Shown here piece by piece: positions 360 to 47,430 of a stretch of DNA of 51,724 bases. How positions within the stretch are numbered: position 1 is the stretch's first letter; each line of letters opens with the position of its first letter. Where the stretch lies: contig CP070629.1 in assembly GCA_020356005.1 (NCBI GenBank), positions 2,992,765 to 3,044,488 of the forward strand. The letters are read 5' to 3'. The stretch is from Thermoplasmata archaeon. GTDB lineage: Archaea; Thermoplasmatota; Penumbrarchaeia; JAEHCK01; GCA-020356005. A model generated the notes under the pieces. The model had not been told where the DNA came from. It saw nothing but the letters and a program-made list of their open reading frames with translations, and made no database searches. The position numbers and the translations under genes are program-made.

Positions 360-3300
360 CTATTCTTCCAAATCAAAATCATCAAACTCTTCATCTTCAC
401 TGTCAAATTCTTCTGCATAGAACTCGTAACCGCACGAGGGGCATACCGAATCGGATTTTAAAGTAACATTCTCACAGTCGGGGCAGATTCGCTCATCTTC
501 TCCTAACTCATCTTCCTCATCTTTTATCTTGCCTTTGGCAGGCATCAGTCTTTTATCTTCAGGTATCAAACCCTCTTCGAGCTCCTCAGCCTCTTCTCCC
601 TCGGGTGCGGGCAGCTCCTCGGCCTCCTCTTCTCCCTCCAACGCTTCTTTTTCCTCGGCCCCCTCAAGCTCCTCATCGGTTTCCAGCTCCTCCTCTTCCT
701 CACCCTCCTCCTCTTCCTCCTCCTCGTCACCATAAAGCCTCTTGAGCTCCCGTTCCTCCTTACCTCTATACCAGATGACAACAAATATGATAATTATTAT
801 AATTATGATAAGCAGGATGATCAGGCCCAGTGTTCCCAACAAGCCGCCGAGTTCAGTGCCCTCGTCTTCGGTATCTTCAATTACTGTTACGGTGAGCGTG
901 TCTGTATCCGATGAGCCGGTTGCGTCCACCACTGTCAGCGTCACAGTATAGGTCCCGGCCTTGGTGTACTGCCAGCGCGCCTCAATTTCAGACCTGTCGC
1001 GGTCGTTGGTGTAATTACCATCGCCGTCGGAATCGATCAATGAATCGAAATCCCAGTAGTAGTTCTGTATATCATTATCCGGATCGGTTGAGCCCGAAGC
1101 GTCAACAGTGAACACTTCATCTACTTTGACTTCAAGATCCTCTCCGGCCTCAGCAACCGGTTTGCTTGCCGTTATGTTCACAACCGTACTGGTTTGAAGT
1201 GTTTGAAGCATGCGTATGGTGCCGTCGTGGGCCACAAAACTCACGGTGTGCGACCCCGACCCGAGCTCCGAGCCTGATATTGTAAATGTAAAATCGACAT
1301 AAGTTTCATAATTCGCTGCTGTGGGATCTTTTTCAGTCATAAAATAAGGATTCCCGTCGATATAGACCTTCACATACCCTCCGTCGCTCGGGGGGTCGTA
1401 ATCACTGTCCCTGTACTTTATCCAGAACGTATAATCATCGATCTCGCGGCCGGTTTTGGGCGAGATCATCTCACCCTCCCAGGGTTCGTATAAATTAGGC
1501 GGCGTATTGTTGAACGTACCCGGTGCGAAAATCAATGGAATGGTTCTTATCAAACCCGTAAAATTCGCCCAGACCTCCACCTTTTCGGCATCAACAAATG
1601 TAACACCGCTGTGCGGGAGCTGCACCCAGCCGGCGTCCCAGTAGTACATACGCATTCTTGAGATGTTCATCTCATGCATTACATCTACTTTATTGAACCC
1701 GATGGTTATGTTTGTCCAATTAATTTTAAATGGATTTACTGGCTCATCCTTGAATCTATAAGTAACGAACTTGTTCACGCTGAAGTTAGTGTAATAGTTT
1801 TCACCAGGATTTGATGCTGAGATCATAGTCACAATACCAGGTCCACCTACCATTATCAAACATCTTGCGGGAATTGTATCGTCGCGAAACTCTTTGATTT
1901 CATATTCAAAAATATCGGGCGTGTCAGGGTCACCGGGCTTACCAAAAATAGAAATATTAACAATTGCAGTACTATTAGCACCTAAATTGTCACGGACAGT
2001 CAGATATATAACATAAACATTACCTAAGGAAACCTTCTGATAAACAATAGGTTCGGGTCCGGAATAGATTATAGTTTTAGTTGTCTCGTCTACTCCTTTT
2101 CTATACCATGTAAAGGTTAATTTTGTATCGTCCAGATCATAACTTGCACTTGCATCAAATTTTATTTCATCTGTGTAATCATAAACCGACCCATTCAGAG
2201 GACTGGATATGACGGCAACCGGTGCAATATTGGGTGCGCCCAGTGCGTATACCCAGCCGGCCTCGTCAGCGCAAAACACACGGTTGCCGTATATGGCCGG
2301 TGAGCCCAGCATCGACGATTTTGTATAGCTGGTATAGTTCCAGAGATGTCTCGCCTTGTCCGTGGTTGTATCTATTAATTTATCTAAAGCAAACAATTTA
2401 CCGCTTTCTGTAGTGAAAAAGACGGCACTGTCACCCACAGCGGCAGAACTTTCAATTCTGGAGCCTGCATCAAATGTCCAGTTAAGTTCACCGGTGAAAA
2501 GAGATACCGAATGGAATTTGCCACCGCCTGTACCGATGTAAACGAAGGAGCCATCGGGGTCCGCAGCAGGCGAGCACCGGCCCGGTGAGCTGTCAAGCTG
2601 GGCGCTCCATAGTAAATCACCCTTGGTCAAACTTGTATCGCTGTCGGTTACGCCGTCGTCACCGTCATAAAAGCCCTGGAGGTCAAAAGCATAAAGCTTG
2701 GTATCATTGGAACCCACAATTACCATATCGTTTACAATCGTTGGTGTCGAATGGATCTGTCCACCTGTACGGTATGTCCAGTTTATTGCACCCGTCTTTG
2801 GGTTTAGGGCAACAAGATCGCCAGTCAGGGTTCCGATGTAAAGTGAGTCTGTTACATTGGAAATAGCGGGGGTGGAATATCCCACCGCTCCACCAAGATT
2901 GGTGCGCCATATATAATCAGTGGTACCGGCAGTTCCATCCTCGTCAAGCGCATAGAGGTATCCGTCCGAAGCACCCACATATACCATACCGTAATAGACC
3001 ATGGGCGTCGATAAAATGGTTGCACTTGTATCATAACTCCATTCCTTTGACCCGGTATAGAGATCCATGGAATAGACCGTCCCCTCTTTCGAAGCTACAT
3101 ATATCCTGTCAAAAATGGATGTATCCTCGCCAAGAAATATCGTGGGCTCTCTAATAAAAGTCCCTCCTGCGGCAAAGTCATCTGCTGGCTGACCTGAGCT
3201 TTCATAAAAACTCTGCACCCTGCCGTTGGATGTAGCAACATAGATCTTATCCTTGGCCAGTATAACCGAACCGCGTATCGCTCCGGGAGTCAGCGTGGAG

Positions 3301-5111
3301 TTCTTCCAGATGTCGCGGTTACTGGGCGAGCCTCCCGGCGCGTAGCCGGTGTGCTCGAAATTCCCCTGGAACATCTGCCAGTTCGATAGATCGCGTAAAT
3401 GATACGATAATGACTTCGAAAGTAGATTATCGGTATTACCTTCACTGGGTTCAACATCTGTAACATTGAACCACATCACCCACAGGTTCTCACCAACAGT
3501 TGGATTCTCAGGTAACTGCCAATCGAGATACAAGGTTGTTTCTGTCCGGGCGGGCAGGCTCACATGTTCCCTTGTAATCTCTTCATGAATTGATTTGTCT
3601 GCAGATGCATAGCTGAAGGTCACATTGGCACTGCCGTTCACAGATCCGATATTTTTTACCTTTGCAGTAAAATTGATAAATTCACCTACAAACGGTTCTG
3701 TATCCGAAATTATAACATCATTGGTATCTATAACAAAATCCGGAGCACCGAAGACGATCATAGAGCCCGGAGAGCCCCCATTACCGGTGAACACCCTGCC
3801 TTTGGCAATGGCCGGTGATGAAATGAGGTTTGCGCCCTGGATCTGTTTCTCCCAGGCGAGCGACTGGCTCGCAATGTCAAATGCATGGATATACTCATAT
3901 GCATGTACGAACACGCGGCCCTCAGCAACCGCGGGCGAGGCATACGACCTACCCAAAAGCTTCTTGCTCCATTTCAACGACCCGGTAAATTTGTTAAAAA
4001 CATAAAGCCCACCATCATTATCCGTGGCAGGAGAGCCGTCCCAATCGATGGTGGTTATGAAAACATCATTGTATGAAATTGCAGGTGTTGATTTTATTCC
4101 TCCCTTTAATTTATTTGATGAATCCCAGACGGAAGCGCCTGTCTCTGCGTTAAGAGCATAAAACTTTTTATCAAGAGAGCCGAAAAAAACCGTGCCAGAA
4201 TCCAAAGATGGTGAAGATTCTATGGGGCCGCCGGTAGTAAAATTCCACTGCTCCTCGCCGTCAGATACATTCACCGCGTAAAATTTATTGTTATTACAAC
4301 CGAAGTAAACCTTATCATAGCCCACGGCGGGTGAGCCCCGGATGGATTCGCTTACATTGAAATGCCAGACCAGATCGCCGTTATCAACATCCAGTGCGTA
4401 AAGCGTACCATTTGCTTTTGGTAGGCTTTTCATTGATGTAGCAAAAACCATCCCGGAGCTAATTGTTGGCGAACCCAGAACCTCGCCGGTGGTCTGGAAT
4501 TCCCAGATCTTCGAACCGTCATCAGCATCTATGGCATAAACGAAATAATTATTGCACCCGAAAATAAGTTTTCCATCATGGATGTTCATTGCAGTCCAGA
4601 CACCCCCACCGTTTATGGCATATTTGGTCGTGTGGTGTTTCCATATCTGTTCTTTGGTGTCGATATCAATTGCGTAGATCCATCCCTGGGCGTCTCCAAA
4701 ATAGACGATGCCATTATCCACAGTTGGAGGCGAATAAACAGATCCATGTGTGGAATATTCCCATAATACAGCTGCATCCTCGGGAGATATACTTGTTGAA
4801 TTGCCGTGATGTGTAGCACCTGCCAAAAACGATAACCATTGGTCAGCTCCCGTATTGATTGATGAGCGGGTGCTGAGAAATTGATTTGATCTGAATTCTA
4901 CTGTATTAATCTCGTTATCGATTGAATTGGTTTGGGTACTGGCAATAATAGAAAAATTAAGATTTATCATCAAGAAAATGATGATGATTCCAGTAATAAC
5001 TCTAATTCTTTTAGGAATTACTTCTTTAAACGATCCAAAGAAAATCATAAAAAGCCCTCTAGATGCTAGAATTATTCGATGTAAAATATTAGAATATATA
5101 AAAGTTCCCAT
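360..5111 (-). CDS. Giant membrane-anchored surface protein: several PQQ-like beta-propeller repeat blocks, PKD/Ig-like domains, a C-terminal TM helix, and a poly-Glu cytoplasmic tail ending in a zinc ribbon
   Basis: Uninterrupted 1583-aa ORF with an N-terminal hydrophobic anchor (ITGIIIIFLMINLNFSIIAS). A propeller-blade motif recurs (NGIVYFGDAQGWIYAIDIDTKEQIW, DKVYFGCNNNKFYAVNVSDGEEQWNF, GMVYVGASDGYLYALDEDG, DMVIVGSNDTKLYAFDL). A PKD-like segment reads YYWDF...AGTYTVTLTVVDATGSSDTDTLTVTV. The TM helix is LGLIILLIIIIIIIIFVVIW, followed by an EEEEEEEGEEEEE tail and CPDC-x10-CPSC. The exact start is uncertain (an alternative Met lies 21 codons in). Confidence 0.85.
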   Translation of the reverse strand: MGTFIYSNILHRIILASRGLFMIFFGSFKEVIPKRIRVITGIIIIFLMINLNFSIIASTQTNSIDNEINTVEFRSNQFLSTRSSINTGADQWLSFLAGATHHGNSTSISPEDAAVLWEYSTHGSVYSPPTVDNGIVYFGDAQGWIYAIDIDTKEQIWKHHTTKYAINGGGVWTAMNIHDGKLIFGCNNYFVYAIDADDGSKIWEFQTTGEVLGSPTISSGMVFATSMKSLPKANGTLYALDVDNGDLVWHFNVSESIRGSPAVGYDKVYFGCNNNKFYAVNVSDGEEQWNFTTGGPIESSPSLDSGTVFFGSLDKKFYALNAETGASVWDSSNKLKGGIKSTPAISYNDVFITTIDWDGSPATDNDGGLYVFNKFTGSLKWSKKLLGRSYASPAVAEGRVFVHAYEYIHAFDIASQSLAWEKQIQGANLISSPAIAKGRVFTGNGGSPGSMIVFGAPDFVIDTNDVIISDTEPFVGEFINFTAKVKNIGSVNGSANVTFSYASADKSIHEEITREHVSLPARTETTLYLDWQLPENPTVGENLWVMWFNVTDVEPSEGNTDNLLSKSLSYHLRDLSNWQMFQGNFEHTGYAPGGSPSNRDIWKNSTLTPGAIRGSVILAKDKIYVATSNGRVQSFYESSGQPADDFAAGGTFIREPTIFLGEDTSIFDRIYVASKEGTVYSMDLYTGSKEWSYDTSATILSTPMVYYGMVYVGASDGYLYALDEDGTAGTTDYIWRTNLGGAVGYSTPAISNVTDSLYIGTLTGDLVALNPKTGAINWTYRTGGQIHSTPTIVNDMVIVGSNDTKLYAFDLQGFYDGDDGVTDSDTSLTKGDLLWSAQLDSSPGRCSPAADPDGSFVYIGTGGGKFHSVSLFTGELNWTFDAGSRIESSAAVGDSAVFFTTESGKLFALDKLIDTTTDKARHLWNYTSYTKSSMLGSPAIYGNRVFCADEAGWVYALGAPNIAPVAVISSPLNGSVYDYTDEIKFDASASYDLDDTKLTFTWYRKGVDETTKTIIYSGPEPIVYQKVSLGNVYVIYLTVRDNLGANSTAIVNISIFGKPGDPDTPDIFEYEIKEFRDDTIPARCLIMVGGPGIVTMISASNPGENYYTNFSVNKFVTYRFKDEPVNPFKINWTNITIGFNKVDVMHEMNISRMRMYYWDAGWVQLPHSGVTFVDAEKVEVWANFTGLIRTIPLIFAPGTFNNTPPNLYEPWEGEMISPKTGREIDDYTFWIKYRDSDYDPPSDGGYVKVYIDGNPYFMTEKDPTAANYETYVDFTFTISGSELGSGSHTVSFVAHDGTIRMLQTLQTSTVVNITASKPVAEAGEDLEVKVDEVFTVDASGSTDPDNDIQNYYWDFDSLIDSDGDGNYTNDRDRSEIEARWQYTKAGTYTVTLTVVDATGSSDTDTLTVTVIEDTEDEGTELGGLLGTLGLIILLIIIIIIIIFVVIWYRGKEERELKRLYGDEEEEEEEGEEEEELETDEELEGAEEKEALEGEEEAEELPAPEGEEAEELEEGLIPEDKRLMPAKGKIKDEEDELGEDERICPDCENVTLKSDSVCPSCGYEFYAEEFDSEDEEFDDFDLEE

Positions 5112-7704: not shown

Positions 7705-7850
7705 CTCAGGACCTAGGACTCAGGACTCAGGGTTAGATTCTTTCACTCTTCAACTTTTCCACTATTCCACTATTCCACTTTTCTACTGTACCACTTATCC
7801 ACTAATACTTACACTATCGGCTATCGACTGCCGACCATCGACTTTGGACT
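7705..7850. repeat. Modular intergenic repeat: 7-mer array (ACTCAGG-like), a nearly G-free 8-mer array (CCACTATT-like), and a CTATCGACTGCCGAC module
   Basis: The sequence reads ctcaggacctaggactcaggactcaggg, then ccactattccactattccacttttctactgtaccacttatccactaat, then ctatcggctatcgactgccgaccatcgac. It is the reverse complement of module types seen at 38879-39020 and 40233-40367. Confidence 0.7.
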
Positions 7851-7941
7851 ATTTTGTTAGTGAACCCACAACGATAAATTAATAAATGCTAAAGGCCTTA
7901 ACCGGAATTGTCATATAACATAACAAAAAAGGCTTGACAAC

Positions 7942-8241
7942 ATGGCATTGACCGATGAACTTAAAAAACTGGTAAATAATGAGATCGCTATTGTAATGAA
8001 CGACGGTATGACTTATCGAGGTATACTAACAAATTACGATGAAGAAACCATAGTAATGGAAAATGTTTTTGAAGCCTCTCGTGGACAGGTTGATTGGATA
8101 GCGACCGCGGATGCAAAAAACAGCGGTGGTAAAACCCTCAAGGGTTATCTGCACTGGCGAAAAATCACACTGCCCAAACTACTTGCCAGAACCGACAGGG
8201 TTCTTCGAATATGGCCGTGGAGGCCTTCAGAAAAAGAATGA
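7942..8241 (+). CDS. Sm-like (LSm/SmAP-type) protein with an extended internal loop
   Basis: Sm1-like segment EIAIVMNDGMTYRGILTNYDEETIVMENVFE and a possible Sm2 segment DRVLRIWP, separated by about 35 aa. The family call is tentative. Confidence 0.5.
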   Translation: MALTDELKKLVNNEIAIVMNDGMTYRGILTNYDEETIVMENVFEASRGQVDWIATADAKNSGGKTLKGYLHWRKITLPKLLARTDRVLRIWPWRPSEKE

Positions 8242-8262: not shown

Positions 8263-8673
8263 TTGAGTAACATGGTAAATGTAGAGATAGAAAATATAAT
8301 CGCATCTGCCACTATCGCGGATGCGCTAGACCTGCCCAAAATAGCAGAAACAATTGAAGGTGCAGAATATAACCCGGACAGATTCCCCGGGGTGGTATTA
8401 AAATTCGAATCACCAAGGGTTGTGGTGCTGCTTTTTGAAAAAGGGAAAATGATGTGTACAGGTGGCCGCAGCCTGAAGGATGTGCAGGAAGTGATGGATA
8501 GCGTCTTCGATACACTTACATCACAACAATTGCTTGTTCCCATAGGAGAGGGAGGGGAAGCCGGGGCAGATAAAGCCAAAGGAGCCAAAGGTGAAGGCGG
8601 AAAAGGCGGAGAAGGTCCAAAGAAAGGTAAAGAACCCGCCGCTCCACCGGAAACGCCAGAAAAACCACAGTAA
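8263..8673 (+). CDS. Single-repeat TBP-domain protein ('half TBP') with a Gly/Lys/Glu/Pro-rich tail
   Basis: Residues 6-88 (VEIENIIASATIADALDLPKIAETIEGAEYNPDRFPGVVLKFESPRVVVLLFEKGKMMCTGGRSLKDVQEVMDSVFDTL) match one TBP repeat strand for strand. There is no second repeat. The tail reads GEGGEAGADKAKGAKGEGGKGGEGPKKGKEPAAPPETPEKPQ. The start is TTG 8263 or ATG 8272. Confidence 0.85.
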   Translation: MSNMVNVEIENIIASATIADALDLPKIAETIEGAEYNPDRFPGVVLKFESPRVVVLLFEKGKMMCTGGRSLKDVQEVMDSVFDTLTSQQLLVPIGEGGEAGADKAKGAKGEGGKGGEGPKKGKEPAAPPETPEKPQ

Positions 8674-8705
8674 AAAAGCCATCAACAACCTCAGCCCTTC
8701 AACTA

Positions 8706-8718
8706 TTTTGTTTTTTTT
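8706..8718 (+). terminator. Oligo-T tract downstream of the half-TBP gene
   Basis: ttttgtttttttt lies 33 nt after the stop codon. Archaeal intrinsic termination typically uses T-runs. Confidence 0.35.
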
Positions 8719-9035
8719 AAGATTACTTTAGTTATTATTTATTGCTTTTATTACTTACAGAATTTTTATTTCAGCATTTTAATTAAAAACTTCCACAATT
8801 TTTTTTAGTTAATAAATAATTGACACCAGATAAATATATCTCACCAAAAAGATTATATTATTGCATTGTAGTATAGAGTATAACCGGGAATAGTACCAGT
8901 TGCTGGTAATATAGGGGAACCCAAGCAACTTATGGAAGGGGCCGACACTAAAAAATTCAAATTCGAAGGAGACGCAAGACTATCAAAATATTCGGTCAGA
9001 TAAATCAAATATAATAAGCTTGAGGGAGGTCATTA

Positions 9036-24104: not shown

Positions 24105-24647
24105 ATGGCCATCCGGAAGGGGCGGGTAGAAGATATACCGGCTTTTGAGTACATAGATAAGCTGTGTTTTCCACAGACCATACGGTACAGCAGGTTCGAT
24201 TTTATCTATTATTTTTTCAAAAACAATGTTTTTACACTGGTCTGTGAGGAGGGCCGGCGCATCCAGGCTTTTATGATCGCCGATGTGAAGTCCACCGAAG
24301 AAGGTCATATAATATCTATCGATGTTCATCCGAACTATCGGCGGAAGGGCCTGGGCAGGAATTTGATGGATGAGGCAGAGAAGATATTTATGAAACTTGG
24401 CATCCAGCGCGTTACGCTGGAGGTACATGAGAGCAATGTTTTAGCACAATTATTTTATTCGGATATGGGCTACAGGCTGGAGAAGAAGCTTTATAATTAC
24501 TACCACTCGGGCCACGGCCTGCAGATGTCCAAGATGCTGGTGGCTGTTAAGCCAGAGGAGAAGGAGGAGGTGGAGCCGATAGTGGTGGAGGCGAAATCAG
24601 AGCAGGCTCAAAAGCAAATGACGCTGGAAAGGTATCAACTAACTTAA
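24105..24647 (+). CDS. GNAT N-acetyltransferase (RimI/Ard1-like) with a charged C-terminal tail
   Basis: The acetyl-CoA binding segment is ISIDVHPNYRRKGLGRNLMDEA, followed by ...RVTLEVHESNVLAQLFYSDMGYR. Confidence 0.8.
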   Translation: MAIRKGRVEDIPAFEYIDKLCFPQTIRYSRFDFIYYFFKNNVFTLVCEEGRRIQAFMIADVKSTEEGHIISIDVHPNYRRKGLGRNLMDEAEKIFMKLGIQRVTLEVHESNVLAQLFYSDMGYRLEKKLYNYYHSGHGLQMSKMLVAVKPEEKEEVEPIVVEAKSEQAQKQMTLERYQLT

Positions 24648-24663
24648 GATTTTAATAGATTTT

Positions 24664-24728
24664 TATAAGCTTTTAAATCGCTTACAGAAAAGCGTAGAGC
24701 GGTTGCGTTGGCGAGGTGCGTAACGTCT
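24664..24728. repeat. Copy A (left-arm only) of the palindromic intergenic element family
   Basis: tataagcttttaaatcgcttacagaaaagcgtagagcggttgcgttggcgaggtgcgtaacgtc aligns with the 5' arms at 26526 and 28203. Confidence 0.7.
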
Positions 24729-24729
24729 A

Positions 24730-24885
24730 GCGTTTGCGATGTGCGTCTCGTTGGGCGGGTTCGATGCTCGTTTCGTAAATCGGTATCGAAGCTCGTCTCG
24801 TTGGGCGGACTCGAGGCTCGTCTCGTAAGACGGGTTCGATGCTCGTTTTAACTTTTGCCTTTTGTCTTTTGCCTCTAGCTTCTCC
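24730..24885. repeat. Interleaved direct repeats (CGTCTCGTTGGGCGG x2, GGGTTCGATGCTCGTTT x2) followed by a CTTTTGCC word array
   Basis: The words start at 24744 and 24794, and at 24757 and 24832. They are followed by acttttgccttttgtcttttgcctc. Confidence 0.7.
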
Positions 24886-25693: not shown

Positions 25694-25756
25694 TTAAATT
25701 GCACAATATTAAATCTATCAAATCACACATGCACCATGCAACCTGCAGCTTATAAT

Positions 25757-25805
25757 CACCCTAGCGCCTATTCTCTATTCTCTAGCGCCTGATTTCATCG
25801 ATTTC
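25757..25805. repeat. Near-identical copy of the 35139-35187 repeat arm (CTAGCGCC 7-mer words + CCTGAT + ATCGAT)
   Basis: caccctagcgcctattctctattctctagcgcctgatttcatcgatttc compares with gcaccctagcgcctaatctctagtctctagcgcctgattttatcgattc. Confidence 0.8.
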
Positions 25806-26493: not shown

Positions 26494-26522
26494 TATTTCG
26501 CCTTTATTAGATTATATTAGAT

Positions 26523-26700
26523 TTTTATATGCTTTTAAATCGCTTCCAGAGGGGCGTCTGACGGTTTGCGGTTGCGCAGTGCGTACCGTCTTACGGCCAA
26601 CGTTTCACGGACGTCTACCGCTAGACGCCTAACGTTACGCCCCTCGCAACCGCACAACGTGAACCGCACCTCTATAAGCGATAAACAATCGCTTCAAATC
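26523..26700. repeat. Copy B of a roughly 175-bp imperfect palindromic intergenic element
   Basis: The left arm cgcttccagaggggcgtctgacggtttgcggttgcgcagtgcgtaccgt is roughly the reverse complement of the right arm acgttacgcccctcgcaaccgcacaacgtgaaccgcacctctataagcg. It lies between the ABC ATPase gene and the downstream permease gene. Confidence 0.75.
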
Positions 26701-28126: not shown

Positions 28127-28198
28127 AACCAGCTTGCATATTTGTATTTATTATAATTAAGATTATAGGTGGATTTTTGACATATTTGGAGGATTACA

Positions 28199-28372
28199 AT
28201 AGCTTTTTTAAAGCTTTCTAATCGCTTCCAGAAGTGCGTCCGACGGTTGCGTCGGCGAAGTGCGTAACGTAATTCGGTTGTGTACTACGGCCGTCAAACG
28301 TCAGACGTGTTACGGTACGCCCCTCGCAACCGTCCAACGTTTACCGCCCTTCTATAAGCGCTTATAATCTCA
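28199..28372. repeat. Copy C of the roughly 175-bp imperfect palindromic intergenic element
   Basis: The left arm reads cgcttccagaagtgcgtccgacggttgcgtcggcgaagtgcgtaacgt and the right arm reads acggtacgcccctcgcaaccgtccaacgtttaccgcccttctataagcg. It lies between the KaiC-like gene and the first permease gene. Confidence 0.75.
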
Positions 28373-29231: not shown

Positions 29232-30146
29232 ATGTCGATGGTATATGCCGTTAAAGGTAAGAATTCTTATGATAATACCCGGAAAATCCTGGAAGCGGCG
29301 GGCAATGAATTTATTAACAATGTAAGATCGCCGCTGCTTATAAAACCTAATCTTGTGGCAGACAGCCGCCATGAGGGCGCCACCACAGATCCGGAGGCTG
29401 TAAAAGCCGTTGTCGAATATTTAAAGGAAAAAACAAATGTTGAGGAAATCATAATCGCTGAGGGCTCAAGCGGCGATACGGAAAAAGCCTTTGATGTTCT
29501 AGGCTACCGAACGATATTCGACGCTTTGCGGATCCCGCTGAAAGATTTGAACAAGGACCAACCAACCTGGATAGATGGCGTAGACCCGTTGAGAGGCCGG
29601 CCGATAAAAATCCCCATTGCACAGAGCGTCCGCAACGCTCGCTACATTATATCATGTGTATTACCCAAAACCCACGATCACGGTATAGTAACATTGGGAA
29701 TAAAAAACCTGATAGGCGTGGTGCCGGGTACGAAATGGAAAAAGACCTTGCACGGGGGTGTTTATCCCGATGAACTGTCGGATCAGGAGCTTAAACGCAG
29801 TATCAGGGGATTTCATCAAAATGTATATTCTATATTTCGAGAGGTGGGAATAGATTTCACTATCATCGACGGGACTGTAGGTATGGAGGGAAACGGTCCC
29901 ATATCGGGTAAGCCTAAAGCAGCAAATTTCGGGCTCGGGGGATTCGATGCGGTGGCAACCGATGCCATAGGAACATTTCTTATGGGATTCGACCCGTATG
30001 AAATTGGTTATATTTACCTAAGCGAAAAGGGCGGTCTGGGGAAGGCAGATATATCTAAAATACAGGTCAATCTTGAGGGGTGGATATCACTTCGCAAGAA
30101 ATTCAAACCCCATTCGAGATACAGCAATATGCATTACAAACCCTGA
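29232..30146 (+). CDS. DUF362-family protein
   Basis: The pattern LIKPNLV...ATTDPEAVKAVVEYL...IIIAEGS...LPKTHDHGIVTLGIKNLIGVVPG...DGTVGMEGNGP matches what I recall of DUF362. The function is unknown. Confidence 0.6.
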   Translation: MSMVYAVKGKNSYDNTRKILEAAGNEFINNVRSPLLIKPNLVADSRHEGATTDPEAVKAVVEYLKEKTNVEEIIIAEGSSGDTEKAFDVLGYRTIFDALRIPLKDLNKDQPTWIDGVDPLRGRPIKIPIAQSVRNARYIISCVLPKTHDHGIVTLGIKNLIGVVPGTKWKKTLHGGVYPDELSDQELKRSIRGFHQNVYSIFREVGIDFTIIDGTVGMEGNGPISGKPKAANFGLGGFDAVATDAIGTFLMGFDPYEIGYIYLSEKGGLGKADISKIQVNLEGWISLRKKFKPHSRYSNMHYKP

Positions 30147-30292
30147 GCATTCCTTCTATTAATATAATACAGAACTATTAATTTTATACCAATTATTCTT
30201 CTGTGTAATATTAGTATTAAAGCATGTGTTTATTTAAGAGTAAAATATATACCCATTCACGATAATAATGGCCAAATTTCGGAGAGGCATAT

Positions 30293-31255
30293 ATGAAAGA
30301 AATCTGGACCGAAAAATATCGGCCGAAATTACTCAAAGAAGTAATTGGCCAGGCTGAAATTACAGATAGATTGAGTTCATATGTTACATCTAAGAATATC
30401 CCGCATCTATTATTCACAGGTGCTGCAGGTACAGGTAAGACGACCTGTGCACTTGCACTTGCCCGAGAGCTCTTCGGTGAGGATATCTGGCGGCAGAACT
30501 TCTCTGAGCTCAATGCTTCTGACGAGCGGGGCATTCAGGTGGTGCGTACAAAGATCAAGGATTTTGCCAGAACCGCACCCATGGGCGATCTGCCCTTCAA
30601 AATAATCTTTTTGGACGAAGCTGATGCGCTCACGCCGGAGGCCCAGGCAGCTTTAAGACGCACCATGGAGCGTTTTACTCATACATGCAGGTTTATTTTA
30701 TCATGCAATTACAGCAGCAAGATAATCGAGCCGATCCAATCGCGCTGTGCGGTATTTCGATTCCGAAAACTTGCGGATGACGCCGTAAAAAAGCACTTGC
30801 AGGCATTGGCAAAAAATGAGAAGTTGAAGCTTAACGCCAAAGCATATGATGCAATCATTTATATTGCGGAGGGCGATTTACGAAAAGCCACGAATGCACT
30901 GCAGGTGGCTGCAACACTTGGAAAGGACATAACTGAGGATACCATATACCATTCCACGGCGACAGCGCGGCCAGAGGAAATCGAAAAACTTGTGAAAACT
31001 GCTCTTAACGGCGATTTTTTGGGGGCACGAAGCTTACTGGATGAACTTTTAACGACATACGGGCTCTCCGGTGATGATATTATCAGCCAGATACATAAGA
31101 ACATATTTAATTTAAGTATACCGGAGCGATCAAAAGTAGAACTTGTAGATACCCTGGGCGAAATCGAATTCAGATTAGTAGAAGGCAGCAATGAGCGTAT
31201 TCAGCTTGAGACATTACTGGCACATTTCGTTCTGGTGGGTTCCAAGCATAAATAA
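30293..31255 (+). CDS. rfcS: Replication factor C small subunit
   Basis: WTEKYRPK, Walker A GAAGTGKTT, Walker B FLDEADAL, and the SRC motif IQSRCAVFRF. Length 320 aa with no intein. SD GGAGAGG. Confidence 0.95.
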   Translation: MKEIWTEKYRPKLLKEVIGQAEITDRLSSYVTSKNIPHLLFTGAAGTGKTTCALALARELFGEDIWRQNFSELNASDERGIQVVRTKIKDFARTAPMGDLPFKIIFLDEADALTPEAQAALRRTMERFTHTCRFILSCNYSSKIIEPIQSRCAVFRFRKLADDAVKKHLQALAKNEKLKLNAKAYDAIIYIAEGDLRKATNALQVAATLGKDITEDTIYHSTATARPEEIEKLVKTALNGDFLGARSLLDELLTTYGLSGDDIISQIHKNIFNLSIPERSKVELVDTLGEIEFRLVEGSNERIQLETLLAHFVLVGSKHK

Positions 31256-32060: not shown

Positions 32061-32174
32061 GAGGCAGGAGGCAAGAGGCAAAAGCTCGACTCTTAGACTC
32101 CTTGACCCCTTGACTCTCAGACTCTTTTATATTTTTGACTCTTGGACTCTTGGATTCACAGACTCCTTGACTCG
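32061..32174. repeat. Word arrays: GAGGCAAG-type followed by 8-mer GACTCYTN arrays
   Basis: The sequence reads gaggcaggaggcaagaggcaaaag, then gactcttagactccttgaccccttgactctcagactc, then gactcttggactcttggattcacagactccttgactcg. It lies between convergent genes. Confidence 0.7.
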
Positions 32175-32221
32175 TTTGCTGCTAGCGCTTAAAATTATTT
32201 TCAGGTCGAAGCGTTCTGATT

Positions 32222-35032: not shown

Positions 35033-35187
35033 GAGGCGCTAGGCGCTAGAGAGGAGGCGCTAGGGTAATCTCATTCGATTATAGACTCTCTCGAACCTAA
35101 AGACCAATAACATAGAATCCTATTCCATCGATTTAACAGCACCCTAGCGCCTAATCTCTAGTCTCTAGCGCCTGATTTTATCGATTC
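35033..35187. repeat. Inverted 7-mer word arrays (GGCGCTAG-type) flanking an 74-bp spacer
   Basis: The left arm is gaggcgctaggcgctagagaggaggcgctagggt (35033-35066). The right arm is accctagcgcctaatctctagtctctagcgcct (35141-35173), followed by gattttatcgattc. Confidence 0.8.
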
Positions 35188-38878: not shown

Positions 38879-39051
38879 AGTGTAAAAGTATAAAAGTGGA
38901 TGAGTGGAAAAGTTATAGTCGACTCGAAATCTTTTGTTAATCCCTTCGATAGTTGGTAGTCGATAGTACGAGTGTACGAGTGAAACAGTGTAAAAGTGGA
39001 ATTGTGTAAGAGTGGAATTTTGCACTTTTGTACTTTTCTACTCTTTTACTG
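38879..39051. repeat. Modular intergenic repeat: C-poor GTGTAAAAG/GTGGA word arrays, a TAGTCGATAGTACGAGTGTA module, and a complementary G-poor arm
   Basis: The sequence contains agtgtaaaagtataaaagtggatgagtggaaaag, then tagtcgatagtacgagtgtacgagtg, then gtgtaaaagtggaattgtgtaagagtggaatttt, followed by gcacttttgtacttttctactcttttac. Confidence 0.7.
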
Positions 39052-39637: not shown

Positions 39638-40159
39638 TTACGACATCAAACCTGTAATTTCCAATTCCTGGATGAGTTCGGTGAATGCCAGCTCTAAATC
39701 CTCTTCGTTCTTTGCGCCCGTACAGACGATCTTCCCGGAATCGAACAGTAATGTGCTCACCGATGGAACGCTGGCATGGTACACGAGCCCGGCGAAGTGT
39801 TCCGGGTCGTACTCCACCCTCTCCTGGCCCAGCGTAATTGCCAGCGCATTTAAATTAAGCAGCTTGTGAAGATCAACACTTGCCACGATGCTCTGGATAT
39901 TAATTTCCACTGGCTGGTTGACACGAATTCCAAGATCTCTAAGCTGCTGCACCACCCCATTCAGGATTTTGTTCACGGTTTCGATATCCTTTACGCCGGT
40001 ACACACAAGCTTACCGTTACTGAAAAAAATAATAGCTCCTTTAGGATCCTTGACATGATATATCAAGCCCGGGAACTGTGAGGGTTCGTATTCGATATTG
40101 TTTAATGCAGTGGCGATCTGTTGTAGATTTAATTTAGTTCCCGTGTCGGCCGAAGCCAC
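39638..40159 (-). CDS. tbp: TATA-box binding protein (two repeats). The true start is probably upstream of the first canonical start codon.
   Basis: Repeat 1 is LNLQQIATALNNIEYEPSQFPGLIYHVKDPKGAIIFFSNGKLVCTG. Repeat 2 is IQSIVASVDLHKLLNLNALAITLGQERVEYDPEHFAGLVYH...LLFDSGKIVCTGAK. The in-frame upstream codons encode IRIEFKIENVV, the missing first strand. Confidence 0.92.
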   Translation of the reverse strand: MASADTGTKLNLQQIATALNNIEYEPSQFPGLIYHVKDPKGAIIFFSNGKLVCTGVKDIETVNKILNGVVQQLRDLGIRVNQPVEINIQSIVASVDLHKLLNLNALAITLGQERVEYDPEHFAGLVYHASVPSVSTLLFDSGKIVCTGAKNEEDLELAFTELIQELEITGLMS

Positions 40160-40232
40160 AACGTTTTCGATTTTGAATTCGATCCTTATACCTCCCCCAA
40201 GAGATAATGAAGCAGATGAAAGTGGATTGCTG

Positions 40233-40367
40233 TTAGTCGACAGTCGGCAGTCGATAGTCCGAGTGTAATAGTTGAAGGGTGTATGAGTGTATAGGTGTAA
40301 GGGTGTATGAGTGTATAGGTGTAAGGGTGTATTAGTGTATGGGTGTAAGAGTAGAATAGTGTATTAG
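40233..40367. repeat. TAGTCGACAGTCGGCAGTCGATAG module followed by a C-free 8-mer array (GTGTAWRR), including two perfect 24-nt units
   Basis: gggtgtatgagtgtataggtgtaa occurs at 40277-40300 and again at 40301-40324, followed by a degenerate third unit. There is no C between about 40261 and 40374. Confidence 0.85.
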
Positions 40368-40495
40368 TTTTTAACCCTAAGGTGTTTTATTTTATTGAAT
40401 TCTTTGATATGTTACCTGTAGGGTAATAATTATTGTTCTATTAAAATTTGTCTAATCCAGGAGGGTTGGTTATATAAAATCAGGAGGCCCCCCTT

Positions 40496-41743: not shown

Positions 41744-41829
41744 GAGAGACGAGTAGCGAGTAGCGAGAAGCGAGGGTAATATAGAGTGATGATATCAGGT
41801 TCTAGGTTCTGGGTTCTGGGTTCCAGGGA
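41744..41829. repeat. 7-mer word arrays: CGAGTAG-type followed by ATCAGG + GTTCTRG-type
   Basis: The sequence reads gagagacgagtagcgagtagcgagaagcgaggg ... atcaggttctaggttctgggttctgggttccaggg. Confidence 0.8.
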
Positions 41830-41987: not shown

Positions 41988-44900
41988 TTGAGCCGAATTT
42001 TCAGTTTATTCATTGTATTGATTTTAACAATAAGTTTTTTAGGAATATTTAGTGAAAGTAATAATGCGACTGATAATGATTATGAAAAAAATGATACAAG
42101 TAGCAGGGGCGGTCCAACATATGTTAGCGGTGTAATATCTGTAAACACTACATGGACCGTGGCTAACAGCCCATACATTGCAAAAAGCAATTTATTGGTA
42201 GATAATCAAACTACTTTAACCATAAAACCAGGTGTAGTAGTTAAATTTGACCAAGGATATTATTTAATGGTCAAAGGAACACTTTCTGCTGTTGGAAATG
42301 AAAATAATTATATTGTTTTTACCTCGAATCAAGGTAGTTGGGAATATATAAAATTCGAAGATGAGTCAAACGATTTAAATTCCTCAATAGAATATTGTGA
42401 AATAAAGTATGCAGATAGGGGGATTTATTGTTATTATTCTTCCCCTAGAATCTCAAATAACATTATTTCTAATAATCGTGATGGAATAAATTGTTGGTAT
42501 TCAAATATACATCGAATAAATAATAATACCATAGAAATGAATGAACGCGGTATTGTTATGGCAAAGAGTTCTCCTATAATATTTAATAATTCAATCAATA
42601 GAAATAAACAGGGTATCAGCTGTCACGAAAAAAGTTCACCAACGATAATATATAATAATATCTCAAGAAATGATAGAGGTATTGTATTTGAGTTTGGGGG
42701 ATCAGCTAAAATTTACAACAATACAATAAATAAGAATAAGAAAGGAATTCATATATTTGGTCAACCAGAATTATATCCAAAGATTTCAAATAATAATATT
42801 TTGGATAACTTTGAATACAATATACAAAATGAATATAATAAAAATGACGTCAATGCAACTAATAATTATTGGGGTACAATAGAAATCTTGCAAATAGATA
42901 ACAGGATTTACGATTTTTATGATGATTTTCAATGGGGTAAGGTTATTTATAAGCCGTTTTTACAAGATCCCAGTACAGATGCACCCAAGTTTGAAAAAAA
43001 TAAACCGCCAATTGCCGAAGCTGGTTCGGATCAAAGTATTATAATTAATAAAACATTAATTTTTGATGGCAGCAAATCATATGACCCTGATAATGATGTT
43101 TTAACATATAAATGGGATTTCGGTGATGGAACATCGACTGACTGGCAAGATAATTGTAACGCCTCATATATTTATAATAAAACTGGAATCTACACAGTAA
43201 CTATTATGGTTTCGGATGGATTACTTACAGATAACGATACATGTAAAGTTAATGTATCGGGTGAAGGAGAAGTACCACAACCCACTTTTTATATAATCAT
43301 AAATTCACCAGCCAACGGCCAAGTGGTTAATGGAACAATTCAGATAATCGGGACGGCGTTTAGCGAGGCGGGAGAAGTAACCAGCGTCCAAGTAAAAATC
43401 GATAATAACAGCTATGAATTGGCAACACCAGGAGAACGAGTAAAAAAGGTGTACAATCCTGAAACGGGTTTATATGAGGATGTTATTATTCCCGATTGGA
43501 GTATCTGGAGCTATAGCTGGAATACAACAGAATTTAATAATGGATTACATATGATTACTGTTCAGGCTATTGATCAGGTGAATAATATTGCTAAAGAAGA
43601 GATTAATGTTACTGTGAATAATACACAGAATATTCCAGTAAATATGATTTTCGAGATTACCCACCCGAATGAAGGAGGTGTTCTTAACGGAACTGTTGAG
43701 ATTTCAGGTAAATTCTGGAGTTCCAGTAAATCAATTCCGTCAATAAAGTTGAAGATAGGTGATGGAAGCTGGTTCATTCCAGATGTATTTCAATGGTATG
43801 ATTGGTGGCTTTTTAATTACTTATGGGATACCACAAAGTACAATGACGGAATTTATGAAATCGCCGTAAAAGGTAAAATCGATTCCGAGGAATTGGTGGA
43901 CAGTGTACTCGTCGTGGTCAATAACGGCGGCAATAAATCATCTTTTGGTGTTAAAATAACAAACCCCCAGAACGCTGAAATCCTTAATGGGACTTATACG
44001 GTGATAGGTTATACCTGGAATTATGATTATGATATTTTGGGAATCGAAATCAGGGTAGATAACCATCCGTGGCAGGAAGTGACCGAATTAGACCAGAAGC
44101 ATATTTCCAATAATGATGATCCTGAATCGGACCCTGAAACGTCATTTAAATTAAATTGGATCGATTGGAGTCATGAACTGGACAGTCGGCCGTATAAGGA
44201 GGGAATACATGAAATAACTGTAAAAGTATATGATTCCAAGGCGACCAAATTTTCGTTTGTTAACGTGATTTTCATCAATGAAGAATATTCCCCAGACGAT
44301 ATAGATCCAGACCAGACCGAGGAAGTACTTGGAATCAAAATAACCCATCCTTATAACGGCGAAATAGTTATCGGCAGCGTAGAAATCCAGGGACTTGCAT
44401 GGTCCAGGTTTGAAAATATCACATCAGTTGAGATCCAAATAGATGAACTGGGTTACATACCTGCCCAGGCTGCTGAAGAGGATTGGACCGTTTGGGGTTA
44501 TATATGGGATACCACCATTCATAAAAATGGTATACATAAAATCAGTGTAAGAATAAATGTTGTTATTGGTGAAAAAACACTATCGGATACAACCACAGTG
44601 CTTGTAATTATCAACAATGCCGTTGAAGGGCCGGGCCAGCCACCCAGAGCCGATATTGAAGTGATAATCTGGACCCCTAAGGAGAACGAGACTGTGAGCG
44701 GAGTCATAGAGGTTTTCGGGTTCGGATGGGCCAGCAATAACGGCACGATACAGGAAATACAAATCAAAATTGATGACGGGCTTTGGCTTCAGGCGAATCC
44801 GATACATTCGGATTGGTGGACTTGGAATTACAGCCTGAACACATCTGAATACGAAAATGGCAAACATAAACTTACCGCGAGATTGAACACCGGAAAGGTA

Positions 44901-45449
44901 TTGATAAATTCATCTATTAATTTCAATATAAACAACACCGGCAAGTCGGTAATAACAGATGATCCGGTCACACCTGATAATGGAGAAGAAGATGAAGATA
45001 TTGATGATGAATCTAATGGAAAAACCGAAAGTGATAAGGATTATTTGAAAAGCACATTTTTATACGCAATCATCATTGCTCTTATTATAATAATTATCAT
45101 TACTTTGTTCTACTCTATAATCTACCAGAACCTCAGAAAAAAGAAAGAAAAAGGTGATCGGGATCTGAAAGATACCGACAGCCGAATAGAAGCTGCCGGT
45201 ACTGGAATTCCCGTAGAACATCCGATTACACCAGAACGTCAAAAGGACCAAGAGGATTTTATCAGAAATTTAAAAGACGAGGCTCTAGTGCCAGAAAAGC
45301 CAAGCGATTTCGATTTGTCCAATGATGGGATGCTGGAAACATTTAAGAGAAGATATGAGGCCGGTGAAATATCCCGGGAGACCTATGATTCAATATTAGA
45401 GACACTGGATGTTCAAAATGATAAATTAGAAATAGAATGGAGATTATAA
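41988..45449 (+). CDS. Large surface protein: signal peptide, right-handed beta-helix (PbH1/NosD-like) repeats, a PKD domain, five Ig-like repeats, a TM helix, and a cytoplasmic tail with a SHOCT-like end
   Basis: SD AGAGGTGG and TTG start. Beta-helix repeats read ISNNIISNNRDGI, INNNTIEMNERGI, FNNSINRNKQGI, YNNISRNDRGI, YNNTINKNKKGI. The PKD segment is LTYKWDFGDGTS...GIYTVTIMVSDG. A roughly 100-aa unit occurs five times (I..P..G..V.G.V.I.G..W......I..V.(V/I).ID......W..W.Y.W(D/N)T....NG.H.I). The TM helix is FLYAIIIALIIIIIITLFYSII. The tail ends FKRRYEAGEISRETYDSILETL. Confidence 0.85.
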   Translation: MSRIFSLFIVLILTISFLGIFSESNNATDNDYEKNDTSSRGGPTYVSGVISVNTTWTVANSPYIAKSNLLVDNQTTLTIKPGVVVKFDQGYYLMVKGTLSAVGNENNYIVFTSNQGSWEYIKFEDESNDLNSSIEYCEIKYADRGIYCYYSSPRISNNIISNNRDGINCWYSNIHRINNNTIEMNERGIVMAKSSPIIFNNSINRNKQGISCHEKSSPTIIYNNISRNDRGIVFEFGGSAKIYNNTINKNKKGIHIFGQPELYPKISNNNILDNFEYNIQNEYNKNDVNATNNYWGTIEILQIDNRIYDFYDDFQWGKVIYKPFLQDPSTDAPKFEKNKPPIAEAGSDQSIIINKTLIFDGSKSYDPDNDVLTYKWDFGDGTSTDWQDNCNASYIYNKTGIYTVTIMVSDGLLTDNDTCKVNVSGEGEVPQPTFYIIINSPANGQVVNGTIQIIGTAFSEAGEVTSVQVKIDNNSYELATPGERVKKVYNPETGLYEDVIIPDWSIWSYSWNTTEFNNGLHMITVQAIDQVNNIAKEEINVTVNNTQNIPVNMIFEITHPNEGGVLNGTVEISGKFWSSSKSIPSIKLKIGDGSWFIPDVFQWYDWWLFNYLWDTTKYNDGIYEIAVKGKIDSEELVDSVLVVVNNGGNKSSFGVKITNPQNAEILNGTYTVIGYTWNYDYDILGIEIRVDNHPWQEVTELDQKHISNNDDPESDPETSFKLNWIDWSHELDSRPYKEGIHEITVKVYDSKATKFSFVNVIFINEEYSPDDIDPDQTEEVLGIKITHPYNGEIVIGSVEIQGLAWSRFENITSVEIQIDELGYIPAQAAEEDWTVWGYIWDTTIHKNGIHKISVRINVVIGEKTLSDTTTVLVIINNAVEGPGQPPRADIEVIIWTPKENETVSGVIEVFGFGWASNNGTIQEIQIKIDDGLWLQANPIHSDWWTWNYSLNTSEYENGKHKLTARLNTGKVLINSSINFNINNTGKSVITDDPVTPDNGEEDEDIDDESNGKTESDKDYLKSTFLYAIIIALIIIIIITLFYSIIYQNLRKKKEKGDRDLKDTDSRIEAAGTGIPVEHPITPERQKDQEDFIRNLKDEALVPEKPSDFDLSNDGMLETFKRRYEAGEISRETYDSILETLDVQNDKLEIEWRL

Positions 45450-45469: not shown

Positions 45470-46051
45470 ATGGCTGTTGAATCCGCTTCTTTGGAACATA
45501 AGACGCGTAAGCAAATCTACAATTATATTTATTCAAATCCAGGCGTACCGTTCAAAATCATCATGAATTTTCTCAGTTTAAATAAATCCACGTTGACCTA
45601 CCACCTGAAGTATCTAGAAAAATCAAATCAAATAACTTCTAAAAGGGAGGGTCGTCAACGGCATTATTTCTGCAATCAACAACCTTCAATTGAATCTAAA
45701 AATCAGCTACCGATAATGGAGAATACGTTGAACAAAAACCAACAAAAAATTCTTGATTTAGTAAAGAACCAGCCGGGGATCTCTGTAAAAGACCTGAATT
45801 TTAGAACCAGAATAAATCAAAGCACAATAGAATATAATTTAAATCGATTAATAGAATTAAAATTAATCTGGAAAGTGAAAACGGATAACGGGATAGGGTA
45901 TGAATATATAACGAAAGATATACTACGAAAAGAAATGTTTAATCGATTATTAAAGAAATTACTAACCAACGAGATCGACGAGGAGACGTATCATCGGATA
46001 CGGAGGAAACTGGAGGATTTGGATTTGGAGGAGCTGGAACCGAGGCAATAA
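45470..46051 (+). CDS. Transcriptional regulator with two winged-helix (ArsR-like) domains
   Basis: wHTH 1 is RKQIYNYIYSNPGVPFKIIMNFLSLNKSTLTYHLKYLEKSNQITSKREGRQRHYF. wHTH 2 is QQKILDLVKNQPGISVKDLNFRTRINQSTIEYNLNRLIELKLIWKV. Confidence 0.7.
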   Translation: MAVESASLEHKTRKQIYNYIYSNPGVPFKIIMNFLSLNKSTLTYHLKYLEKSNQITSKREGRQRHYFCNQQPSIESKNQLPIMENTLNKNQQKILDLVKNQPGISVKDLNFRTRINQSTIEYNLNRLIELKLIWKVKTDNGIGYEYITKDILRKEMFNRLLKKLLTNEIDEETYHRIRRKLEDLDLEELEPRQ

Positions 46052-46053
46052 AA

Positions 46054-46088
46054 TCAGGTTCTGGGTTCTAGGTTCTGGGTTCTAGGGG
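46054..46088. repeat. ATCAGG + GTTCTRG 7-mer array (same family as 41806-41829)
   Basis: The sequence is caggttctgggttctaggttctgggttctaggggg, immediately after the stop of the wHTH gene. Confidence 0.8.
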
Positions 46089-47292: not shown

Positions 47293-47430
47293 GAGAGACG
47301 AGGGACGAGTAGCGAGTAGCGAAGGCTGACGCCTAGCAATGAGCAGTGAGTGTTGCGCACGGCTGCTTCGCAACCTTGAGTAGTGAGAACATTCGGGGCT
47401 GGGGCCTCGGGCCTGGGGGCTGGGGCCGCC
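47293..47430. repeat. Word arrays: CGAGTAG-type, GAGYAGTGAG-type and GGGGCTGGGGCC-type
   Basis: The sequence reads gagagacgagggacgagtagcgagtagcgaagg ... gagcagtgagtg ... gagtagtgagaac ... ggggctggggcctcgggcctgggggctggggcc. Confidence 0.75.

Follow-up and report, generated by a model that had tools for sequence, protein, structure and literature searches.

A mosaic single-lobe TBP paralog encoded beside a divergent Sm-like protein in a Thermoplasmata archaeon, a candidate for symmetric DNA binding

The pseudo-symmetry of the two lobes of the TATA-binding protein (TBP) represents the textbook outcome of gene duplication and fusion. In a 51,724-nucleotide stretch of a Thermoplasmata archaeon genome (contig CP070629.1, positions 2,992,765 to 3,044,488; in the following the window) a gene for such a TBP is accompanied by a smaller one, whose product has only one TBP lobe and which we call sTBP. 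This raises the question what a single lobe does in an organism that also encodes the complete protein. The analysis presented here argues that sTBP may be a lineage-specific functional TBP paralog, whose gene presumably follows that of a divergent Sm-like protein in a common operon, and that its lobe could work as a symmetric dimer.

The open reading frame (8263 to 8673, plus strand) and the TBP sequence blocks quoted in a preliminary description of this DNA are present, and the translation is as given there. However, the 136-aa product counted from TTG 8263 is three codons too long. Because all orthologs begin with MV.V.IENIIAS, which matches ATG 8272, this codon is almost certainly the true start and yields a protein of 133 aa. 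An identical protein is deposited at NCBI as UCH88690.1 (‘hypothetical protein JSV49_10625’, from a Thermoplasmata archaeon metagenome-assembled genome (MAG) with a 3.58-Mb contig). TBP is the only Pfam domain in sTBP, and the single match to PF00352 (residues 7-86, profile positions 2-83 of 85, E=1.5e-23, 82.8 bits against a cutoff of 22.9) bears out the one repeat that had been proposed. The low-complexity tail of about 45 aa, rich in Gly, Lys, Glu and Pro, was likewise described correctly, and so was the absence of a second repeat downstream, as TBP-like sequence is found in none of the six frames of 8500-9040. The upstream gene does stop at 8241, 21 nt ahead of TTG 8263. In a six-frame scan of the whole window with hidden Markov models (HMM), the only TBP lobes were that of sTBP and the two of the canonical TBP. 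The latter is encoded 31 kb away on the minus strand, and sTBP is thus, as stated previously, an extra paralog and no replacement. Measured against the NCBIfam TBP models (PRK00394 family) sTBP stays below all cutoffs (best score 85.7 bits, cutoffs 181-347), and with one Pfam stretch it lacks the two tandem lobes of a canonical TBP.

The sTBP lobe can be aligned without gaps to both lobes of the TBP structures 1mp9, 2z8u and 1pcz/1ais. AlphaFold2 (AF2) predicted strands at residues 5-14, 32-34, 38-45, 50-55 and 59-65 and helices at 21-27 and 68-84, with a predicted local distance difference test score (pLDDT) of 96-98. In a run without a multiple sequence alignment (MSA) the order of the elements was identical to S1-H1-S2-S3-S4-S5-H2. 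Identity to genuine TBP lobes is about 40-50%. The DNA face consists of N8, I10, R37, F38, K44, L53, F55, K59, M61 and T63. N8, R37, F38, K/R44, L53, F55, K/R59 and T63 are conserved in the sTBP family, both intercalating Phe included, and I10 is invariant where 86-87% of the TBP lobes carry Val. Strand S1, the dyad strand with the sequence IENIIAS, is 100% invariant in the family and variable in TBP lobes. In helix H2, D70 and V71 are invariant and Q72, M75 and D76 are present in most members, again at positions that vary in TBPs.

The stirrup EYNPDRF is nearly invariant in the sTBP family. Its columns are dominated by N34 (94% of the single-lobe family), D36 (94%) and R37 (88%), where C-lobes of TBP have Glu (69%), Glu (74%) and Gln (58%). 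The Glu residues at C.L3.2 and C.L3.4 of the C-lobe stirrup contact a conserved Arg and Thr of TFB/TFIIB (PMC7221094). At these TFB-contact positions sTBP carries N34 and D36, followed by R37, and therefore does not have the canonical stirrup with two acidic residues.

A search of 5.8 billion proteins gave ten single-lobe sTBP orthologs with 59-84% identity; the sequences of two others come from retrieved loci. Every ortholog examined has one lobe and a low-complexity tail, and the one-lobe architecture is found in more than 12 independent assemblies or contigs. Together with related single-lobe proteins the family has about 16 members, all of them metagenomic, and its only NCBI record is that of the window's own genome. 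A comparison of 16 family members leaves 26 positions of the core without variation, the whole S1 strand among them. For the 88 codons of the core, four orthologs differ at a proportion of 0.09-0.18 of the nonsynonymous sites (pN), while the synonymous sites (pS 0.69-0.95) are saturated, which indicates strong purifying selection. Sequence comparison thus confirms that sTBP is a real gene under selection. The independent one-lobe orthologs, the purifying selection and a conserved promoter (see below) exclude in practice the frameshift or assembly break that had been considered as a way of hiding a second repeat.

A survey shows the sTBP family to be limited to a few metagenomic lineages. A profile search of 1.84 billion cluster representatives yielded 5564 TBP-domain proteins, and among the best 150 of these six had a single TBP stretch. 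When 5.8 billion proteins were searched with a profile, no further named single-lobe members appeared, the listing being dominated by two-lobe TBPs. Family-specific peptide patterns detected no sTBP ortholog in 185,579 GTDB species representatives; they matched only two-lobe TBPs, a fragment at a contig end and a multidomain protein of an Asgard archaeon. A single TBP lobe (…IEYNPDRFPGLIVKM…IIIFSSGKIILAS…) is contained in a 435-aa Asgard protein of the Promethearchaeota MAG JAEORV010000088.1 (locus L034, 2842-4149), where it sits in a multidomain context between two segments resembling Lrp/AsnC-type regulators.

Five distant single-lobe relatives (P0071, P0149, P0154, P0019 and P0104) share the signature IENIIAS / EYNPDRFPGV / MMCT. 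Their C-termini differ: P0071 and P0149 have acidic or Pro-rich tails, P0154 has none, and P0019 and P0104 (114-116 aa) carry a CPxC...CPxC zinc ribbon in place of the disordered tail. The gene of P0019 is located at 6001-6351 of L006/L007, in L007 close to where a gene with a called length of 9504 aa ends.

Directly upstream of sTBP lies a gene for a small protein that matches Pfam LSM (E=7.9e-7, 29.1 bits against a cutoff of 23.4) and shows weak similarity to LSm6 and SmG in the PDB (E=0.04-0.2). A conserved insertion of about 35 aa separates its Sm1 and Sm2 motifs. What we take to be the position of the Sm1 Asn is occupied by an invariant Thr, so that the canonical uridine-binding residue is missing, and at what is presumably the Sm2 RGD position all orthologs have R-T/S-D and not RGD (RTD in the window copy). 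In every locus of the window's clade (L001-L005, L009-L011 and L036-L038) this Sm-like gene of 98-107 aa is found 1-36 nt upstream of sTBP, even where the downstream neighbour differs. The Sm-like family has 12 members and a distribution as narrow as that of sTBP; several members are recorded on contigs of the same length as those of sTBP orthologs.

Upstream of the Sm-like gene a block of about 35 nt, which resembles a B recognition element (BRE) and TATA box (AACGATAAATTAATAAATRCTAAAA.CCTTAACCG), aligns in five loci, those of the window, L001, L003, L009 and L036. It is kept even though the synonymous sites of the operon genes are saturated. The arrangement predicts that the Sm-like gene and sTBP form an operon and are co-transcribed from this promoter, with a start expected about 25 nt past its TATA-like part (7874-7888). 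Transcription in archaea is ended by oligo-T tracts, and the T run behind sTBP is likely the terminator of the operon. The features of the two TBP loci are compiled in Table 1.

Table 1. Positions of sTBP, its operon, the canonical TBP and associated sequence elements in the window
Feature	Positions	Strand	Remarks
23-nt element CTATCGACTGCCGACCATCGACT	7821..7843	+	upstream of the Sm-like/sTBP operon
Conserved archaeal promoter block, BRE/TATA-like, AACGATAAATTAATAAATGCTAAAGGCCTTAACCG	7870..7904	+	38-72 nt upstream of the Sm-like ATG; cross-locus alignment
Sm-like (LSM-domain) gene, 99 aa	7942..8241	+	first gene of the predicted two-gene operon; Pfam LSM match
sTBP gene, 133 aa and stop codon	8272..8673	+	ATG 8272 is the conserved start; longest ORF from TTG 8263
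sTBP TBP lobe, aa 1-88	8272..8535	+	S1-H1-S2-S3-S4-S5-H2; gap-free structure alignment, AF2
sTBP stirrup EYNPDRF, aa 32-38	8365..8385	+	N-lobe type; column statistics
sTBP Gly/Lys/Glu/Pro tail, aa 89-133	8536..8670	+	low-complexity, predicted disordered; AF2 pLDDT 50-57
Oligo-T run TTTTGTTTTTTTT	8706..8718	+	33 nt past the sTBP stop; direct sequence reading
Canonical two-lobe TBP	39638..40183	-	181 aa if started at ATC 40183; two Pfam TBP stretches, E=7.7e-47
23-nt element, second copy	40235..40257	-	21 of 23 positions identical; lies 51 nt ahead of the probable TBP start

One lobe spans only half a TATA element, and for a function on DNA a dimer would therefore be needed. A self-tandem model, in which the natural tail served as linker and a TBP MSA was supplied to AF2, reached a core pLDDT of 96-98 and a predicted template modelling score (pTM) of 0.71. 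It superposes on whole TBPs with TMt 0.86-0.91 and a root-mean-square deviation of 1.7-2.2 Å. A homodimer that rebuilds a symmetric saddle is therefore plausible, the model being a sign of compatibility with the saddle and short of proof.

We propose that two copies of sTBP would pair via S1 to a two-fold symmetric, ten-stranded saddle; a self-pairing interface would predict the total invariance of this strand. Its four intercalating Phe would be F38 and F55 of either copy, and A/T-rich, TATA-like DNA would be bound and bent by it. Each of the two stirrups would be of the N-type (N34/D36/R37) and one Glu short of the pair with which every canonical C-lobe reaches TFB, and for this reason TATA boxes might be occupied without normal TFB recruitment. 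In this way the dimer would modulate, or compete with, promoter complexes of TBP and TFB, and the variable tail, perhaps together with the Sm-like partner, may tune or target its activity. For the symmetric TATA-binding homodimer that acts on TBP-TFB complexes without recruiting TFB normally we estimate a probability of roughly 45%, and a lower one for its role as competitor.

Several observations weigh against this proposal. The MSA used for the self-tandem model contained two-lobe TBPs, which biases the test as the saddle arrangement could be inherited from them, and the MSA-free run of the self-tandem was uninformative (pLDDT 48). M61 is invariant in the sTBP family where TBPs have Val or Ile, and this exchange on the DNA face could alter or abolish binding to the minor groove. 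D36 is acidic like one of the TFB contacts, and the C-lobe of the window's TBP itself has Asp at the other one, so that TFB might be bound after all. In addition, the conserved Sm-like partner points to a link with RNA for which the dimer model has no explanation, and the distant single-lobe relatives have no Sm-like partner and bear other tails, including the zinc ribbon.

The strongest alternative, which we nevertheless regard as unlikely, takes up the TFB question. It assumes that the sTBP homodimer is a positive initiation factor that recruits TFB, maybe a dedicated paralog and in either orientation, and thereby serves a specific regulon. The haloarchaea offer a precedent with their multiple TBPs (PMC2121645), and for their TBP/TFB pairs a control of specific regulons was proposed. 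The retained DNA face and the one acidic TFB contact kept by D36 would fit, and the near-invariant EYNPDRF stirrup suggests a specific partner. However, at C.L3.2 Asn replaces Glu and the next contact position is Arg instead of Gln or Leu (PMC7221094), a symmetric dimer would give no cue for polarity, and the window contains no TFB gene.

Less probable again is that sTBP acts as a monomer which, by analogy to the N-terminal domain of RNase HIII, would bind nucleic acid duplexes and, jointly with the Sm-like protein, serve RNA or R-loop metabolism. The strictly conserved operon and the equally narrow distribution of both proteins would fit, and single TBP lobes of bacteria indeed bind duplex nucleic acids (PMC3597702, PMC7221094). 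However, with 40-50% identity to TBP lobes sTBP keeps the TATA-specific Phe pair, which the bacterial and RNase HIII lobes do not have (PMC7221094). Moreover, the Sm-like protein is devoid of both the canonical uridine-pocket Asn and the RGD motif, and none of the three distant family members with readable gene context (P0019, P0071 and P0149) has an Sm-like neighbour.

Two further ideas involve the tail. The motif (L)PPE[VI]EAE[LI]IARG[DE]GP occurs in the tail of most orthologs (P0002, P0004, P0006-P0008, P0010, P0011, L036 3329-3745 and L037 3334-3783) and is absent, in the form LPPE[VI]EAELIARG[DE]GP, from the window's sTBP, P0003 and P0005. Perhaps it serves as a short linear interaction motif. 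A rather speculative extension of the dimer proposal is a two-component system, in which the symmetric sTBP dimer would sit on TATA-like DNA and a ring of the Sm-like protein or the tail motif LPPE.EAELIARGDGP would couple its occupancy to a target other than TFB, e.g., nascent RNA or another initiation or silencing factor. If true, the symmetric TBP would exist in a natural, evolvable form, and the control of archaeal promoters would gain a new level. It is improbable, and ranks behind that extension, that sTBP is a pure protein decoy which binds no DNA and titrates TBP (lobe to lobe or on the concave face), TFB or some other partner. The family-specific conserved residues of H2 suggest a protein-binding surface and the tail motif would suit such a function, but the decoy leaves the purifying selection on the full set of DNA contacts unexplained.

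A different kind of explanation concerns the origin of the lobe. With lobe-specific HMMs sTBP scores 111.9 bits as N-lobe versus 92.1 bits as C-lobe, and in each of the ten NCBIfam TBP models its alignment falls on the N half. The phylogenetic placement that the preliminary description had called for was done by neighbour-joining: 15 single-lobe proteins group together within the N-lobes, with 59% bootstrap for the whole clade and 97.5% for its core. When the lobe was divided, N-lobes were sister to the front half of sTBP in 97/100 bootstraps, whereas C-lobes were sister to the back half in 63/100. A segment-wise N/C comparison with 97 close two-lobe TBPs as reference resolves this further. 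S1, H1 and S2-stirrup-S3 are N-type, each with a family value reached by no C-lobe. S4 is C-type (-0.88 versus +0.50±0.38 for N-lobes, none of which is as low). S5 is N-type (+0.48 versus -0.07 for C-lobes, 1% of which reach this value), and H2 is C-type (-0.46, with no N-lobe as low). In the closest two-lobe TBPs, which are Thermoplasmatota-like, the N-lobe already contains EYNPDRFPG and the C-lobe PKVVVLLF. A chimera of an N-type front and a C-type back with a single crossover was considered and rejected, as in the closer reference set S5 is N-type between the C-type S4 and H2.

Judged by these segments, the sTBP lobe is a mosaic derived from an already differentiated two-lobe TBP; their strong polarisation and the narrow distribution of the family speak for this descent. 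It may have come about by collapse of the repeats, by gene conversion, or by loss of the C-lobe and later adaptation. The hint of the preliminary description at an ancestral state of TBP finds no support here. It is very improbable that sTBP is a living fossil descended from a single-lobe ancestor before the duplication. The single lobe, the plausible symmetric dimer and the scenario of a monopartite ancestor in the literature (PMC3597702) would agree with that idea, but the segments are polarised to N- or C-lobes and not intermediate, the clade is nested among archaeal TBP N-lobes with the Thermoplasmatota-like N-lobes containing EYNPDRFPG as nearest, and the distribution is very narrow with no orthologs in the GTDB species representatives. 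Finally, that sTBP is an artefact or pseudogene, i.e., a truncated or frameshifted TBP or an assembly error, as the NCBI label ‘hypothetical protein’ and the missed NCBIfam cutoffs could make one think, is scarcely credible in view of the one-lobe architecture in more than 12 independent assemblies, the lack of a lobe remnant in any frame and the strong purifying selection.

The canonical TBP of the window was itself slightly misplaced before. A two-lobe TBP is present at 39638-40159 as reported, but it lies on the minus strand and probably starts further upstream, at 40183. Upstream of its strand S1 there is no ATG, GTG or TTG in frame; translation from the first one available, GTG 40159, would cut into IENVVAS. 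On the minus strand of the region 40157-40201 a Shine-Dalgarno-like motif GGAGGT (40195-40190) is followed after 6 nt by ATC 40183. The NCBIfam TBP models align end to end with this protein, beginning at profile position ~6 if ATC 40183 is the start. This suggests that translation starts at the non-canonical codon ATC 40183 (or ATA 40189).

Both TBP-family genes are preceded by a copy of a 23-nt element (CTATCGACTGCCGACYRTCGACT), for which the window gives two matches where none are expected and which is itself a CGAC repeat with a period of 7 nt. The copies are oriented alike with respect to the gene that each precedes, and about 8-11 units of an 8-nt-period CAC repeat lie ahead of each (7744-7804 before the operon copy and 40261-40368 before the TBP copy). 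It is possible that the shared element reflects co-regulation of the two genes, or else a fast-evolving repeat phenomenon. As a conserved regulatory site the repeats and the element were rejected, since they are not conserved in the orthologous loci.

Short tandem or periodic repeats are widespread between the genes of the window, with units of 7-8 nt (GACTCnTn, GGTTCTn, CGAGTAG) or 25 nt, and so are palindromes of the CTAGCGCC type (24712-24848, 25750-25803, 32088-32176, 35034-35186, 38879-39019, 41744-41828, 46048-46087 and 47300-47427). Orthologous loci of related metagenomes have comparable intergenic repeats with different units. In addition, a 58-nt intergenic module is present in three copies that are 74-81% identical (24647-24704, 26509-26566 and 28191-28248) and a 74-nt module in two copies that are 80% identical (26607-26680 and 28287-28360). 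Both are spaced by ~1.7-1.9 kb and flank genes for an FtsX permease, an ABC ATPase and a KaiC-like protein; they may be duplicated promoter or terminator cassettes.

The remaining genes of the window are ordinary archaeal ones and include those for TtuA, an HhH protein, a GT2 glycosyltransferase, RFC, the CCA-adding enzyme and Lrp/AsnC regulators. Scans with Rfam and for tRNAs gave no matches in the window. Two large proteins are predicted to be surface proteins. One has 1583 aa with PQQ/beta-propeller repeats and PKD (360-5111, minus strand) and is syntenic with the sTBP region in L001, L009 and L036, and the other has 1153 aa with beta-helix/NosD, PKD and Big_7 (41988-45449, plus strand).

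To our knowledge, it has never been demonstrated that a natural single TBP lobe forms a symmetric homodimer on DNA. With its DNA contacts kept, under selection and small, sTBP is a good natural candidate for the symmetric-TBP experiment. If it were true that sTBP competes at TATA boxes without TFB recruitment, it would be a global modulator of archaeal transcription of a new type, and the strict linkage to the Sm-like gene suggests an unexplored partner. In evolutionary terms sTBP, and apparently TbpA of Halobacterium salinarum too, would have taken the reverse path, in which differentiated lobes collapsed into one mosaic lobe. Caution is therefore due before single-lobe TBPs are taken for ancestral relics.

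Half-TBPs as such are already known in archaea. Brindefalk et al. (2013; PMC3597702) described two groups of single-TBP-domain proteins, namely the halobacterial TbpA, which falls in with genuine TBPs, and very divergent proteins of 82-136 aa in Thermococcales. With less than 150 aa, one TBP domain, a gene context that excludes a split TBP and a full-length TBP in the genome, sTBP is a monopartite protein in their sense; its family, which forms a clade of its own, appears to be distinct from both described groups. Beyond the general accounts in PMC3597702 and PMC7221094, the literature yielded nothing specific to the sTBP family.

Outside archaea, the N-terminal domain of bacterial RNase HIII is, like sTBP, a single TBP-type lobe that is not part of a two-lobe saddle. 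However, this domain is joined to a catalytic one and has RNA/DNA hybrids as its ligand; the TATA-intercalating Phe signature is missing from it (PMC7221094), and its sequence is very distant. The monopartite proteins of Thermococcales (e.g., P. furiosus NP_578195) resemble sTBP in being small, with one TBP domain, no adjacent second lobe and a normal TBP elsewhere in the genome. They are highly diverged, form a separate cluster and give only short and weak local BLAST alignments to their own TBPs (PMC3597702). sTBP is far nearer to TBP (E=1.5e-23, ~40-50% identity), the comparison with the Thermococcales proteins being based on their published description only.

A close parallel is TbpA of H. 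salinarum (pNRC100, WP_010890513.1, 100 aa), which like sTBP is one TBP-like lobe beside two-lobe TBPs. The two share 35/89 core residues (39%). TbpA has a C-type stirrup (DYDPEQFPGLVYR) with the acidic TFB signature D-P-E, whereas that of sTBP is the N-type EYNPDRF. In contrast to sTBP, TbpA has neither a long tail nor an Sm-like partner, is plasmid-borne near insertion sequence (IS) elements and belongs to the class Halobacteria. An ISH8-family transposase is located 275 nt downstream of it. In the segment-wise N/C comparison with the same reference set, TbpA gave -0.08 for the front and -0.40 for the back, and sTBP +0.25 and -0.11. The TbpA locus (L039 19983-20285; pNRC100 30044-30346) encodes an N-type start TIENVVAS, then the C-type stirrup, S4-S5 and an H2 that ends in LEDLGLLD. 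By this order of segments TbpA is a collapsed hybrid lobe and not a simple truncation.

With canonical archaeal TBP, finally, sTBP shares the fold, the order of the strands and the DNA contacts including both Phe. The end of its H2 (LL) is C-lobe-like, and a charged, variable C-terminal tail is found in many archaeal TBPs as well. Unlike canonical TBP, it has one lobe, falls under every curated cutoff, possesses only an N-type stirrup and carries invariant I10 and M61 where Val is mostly found.

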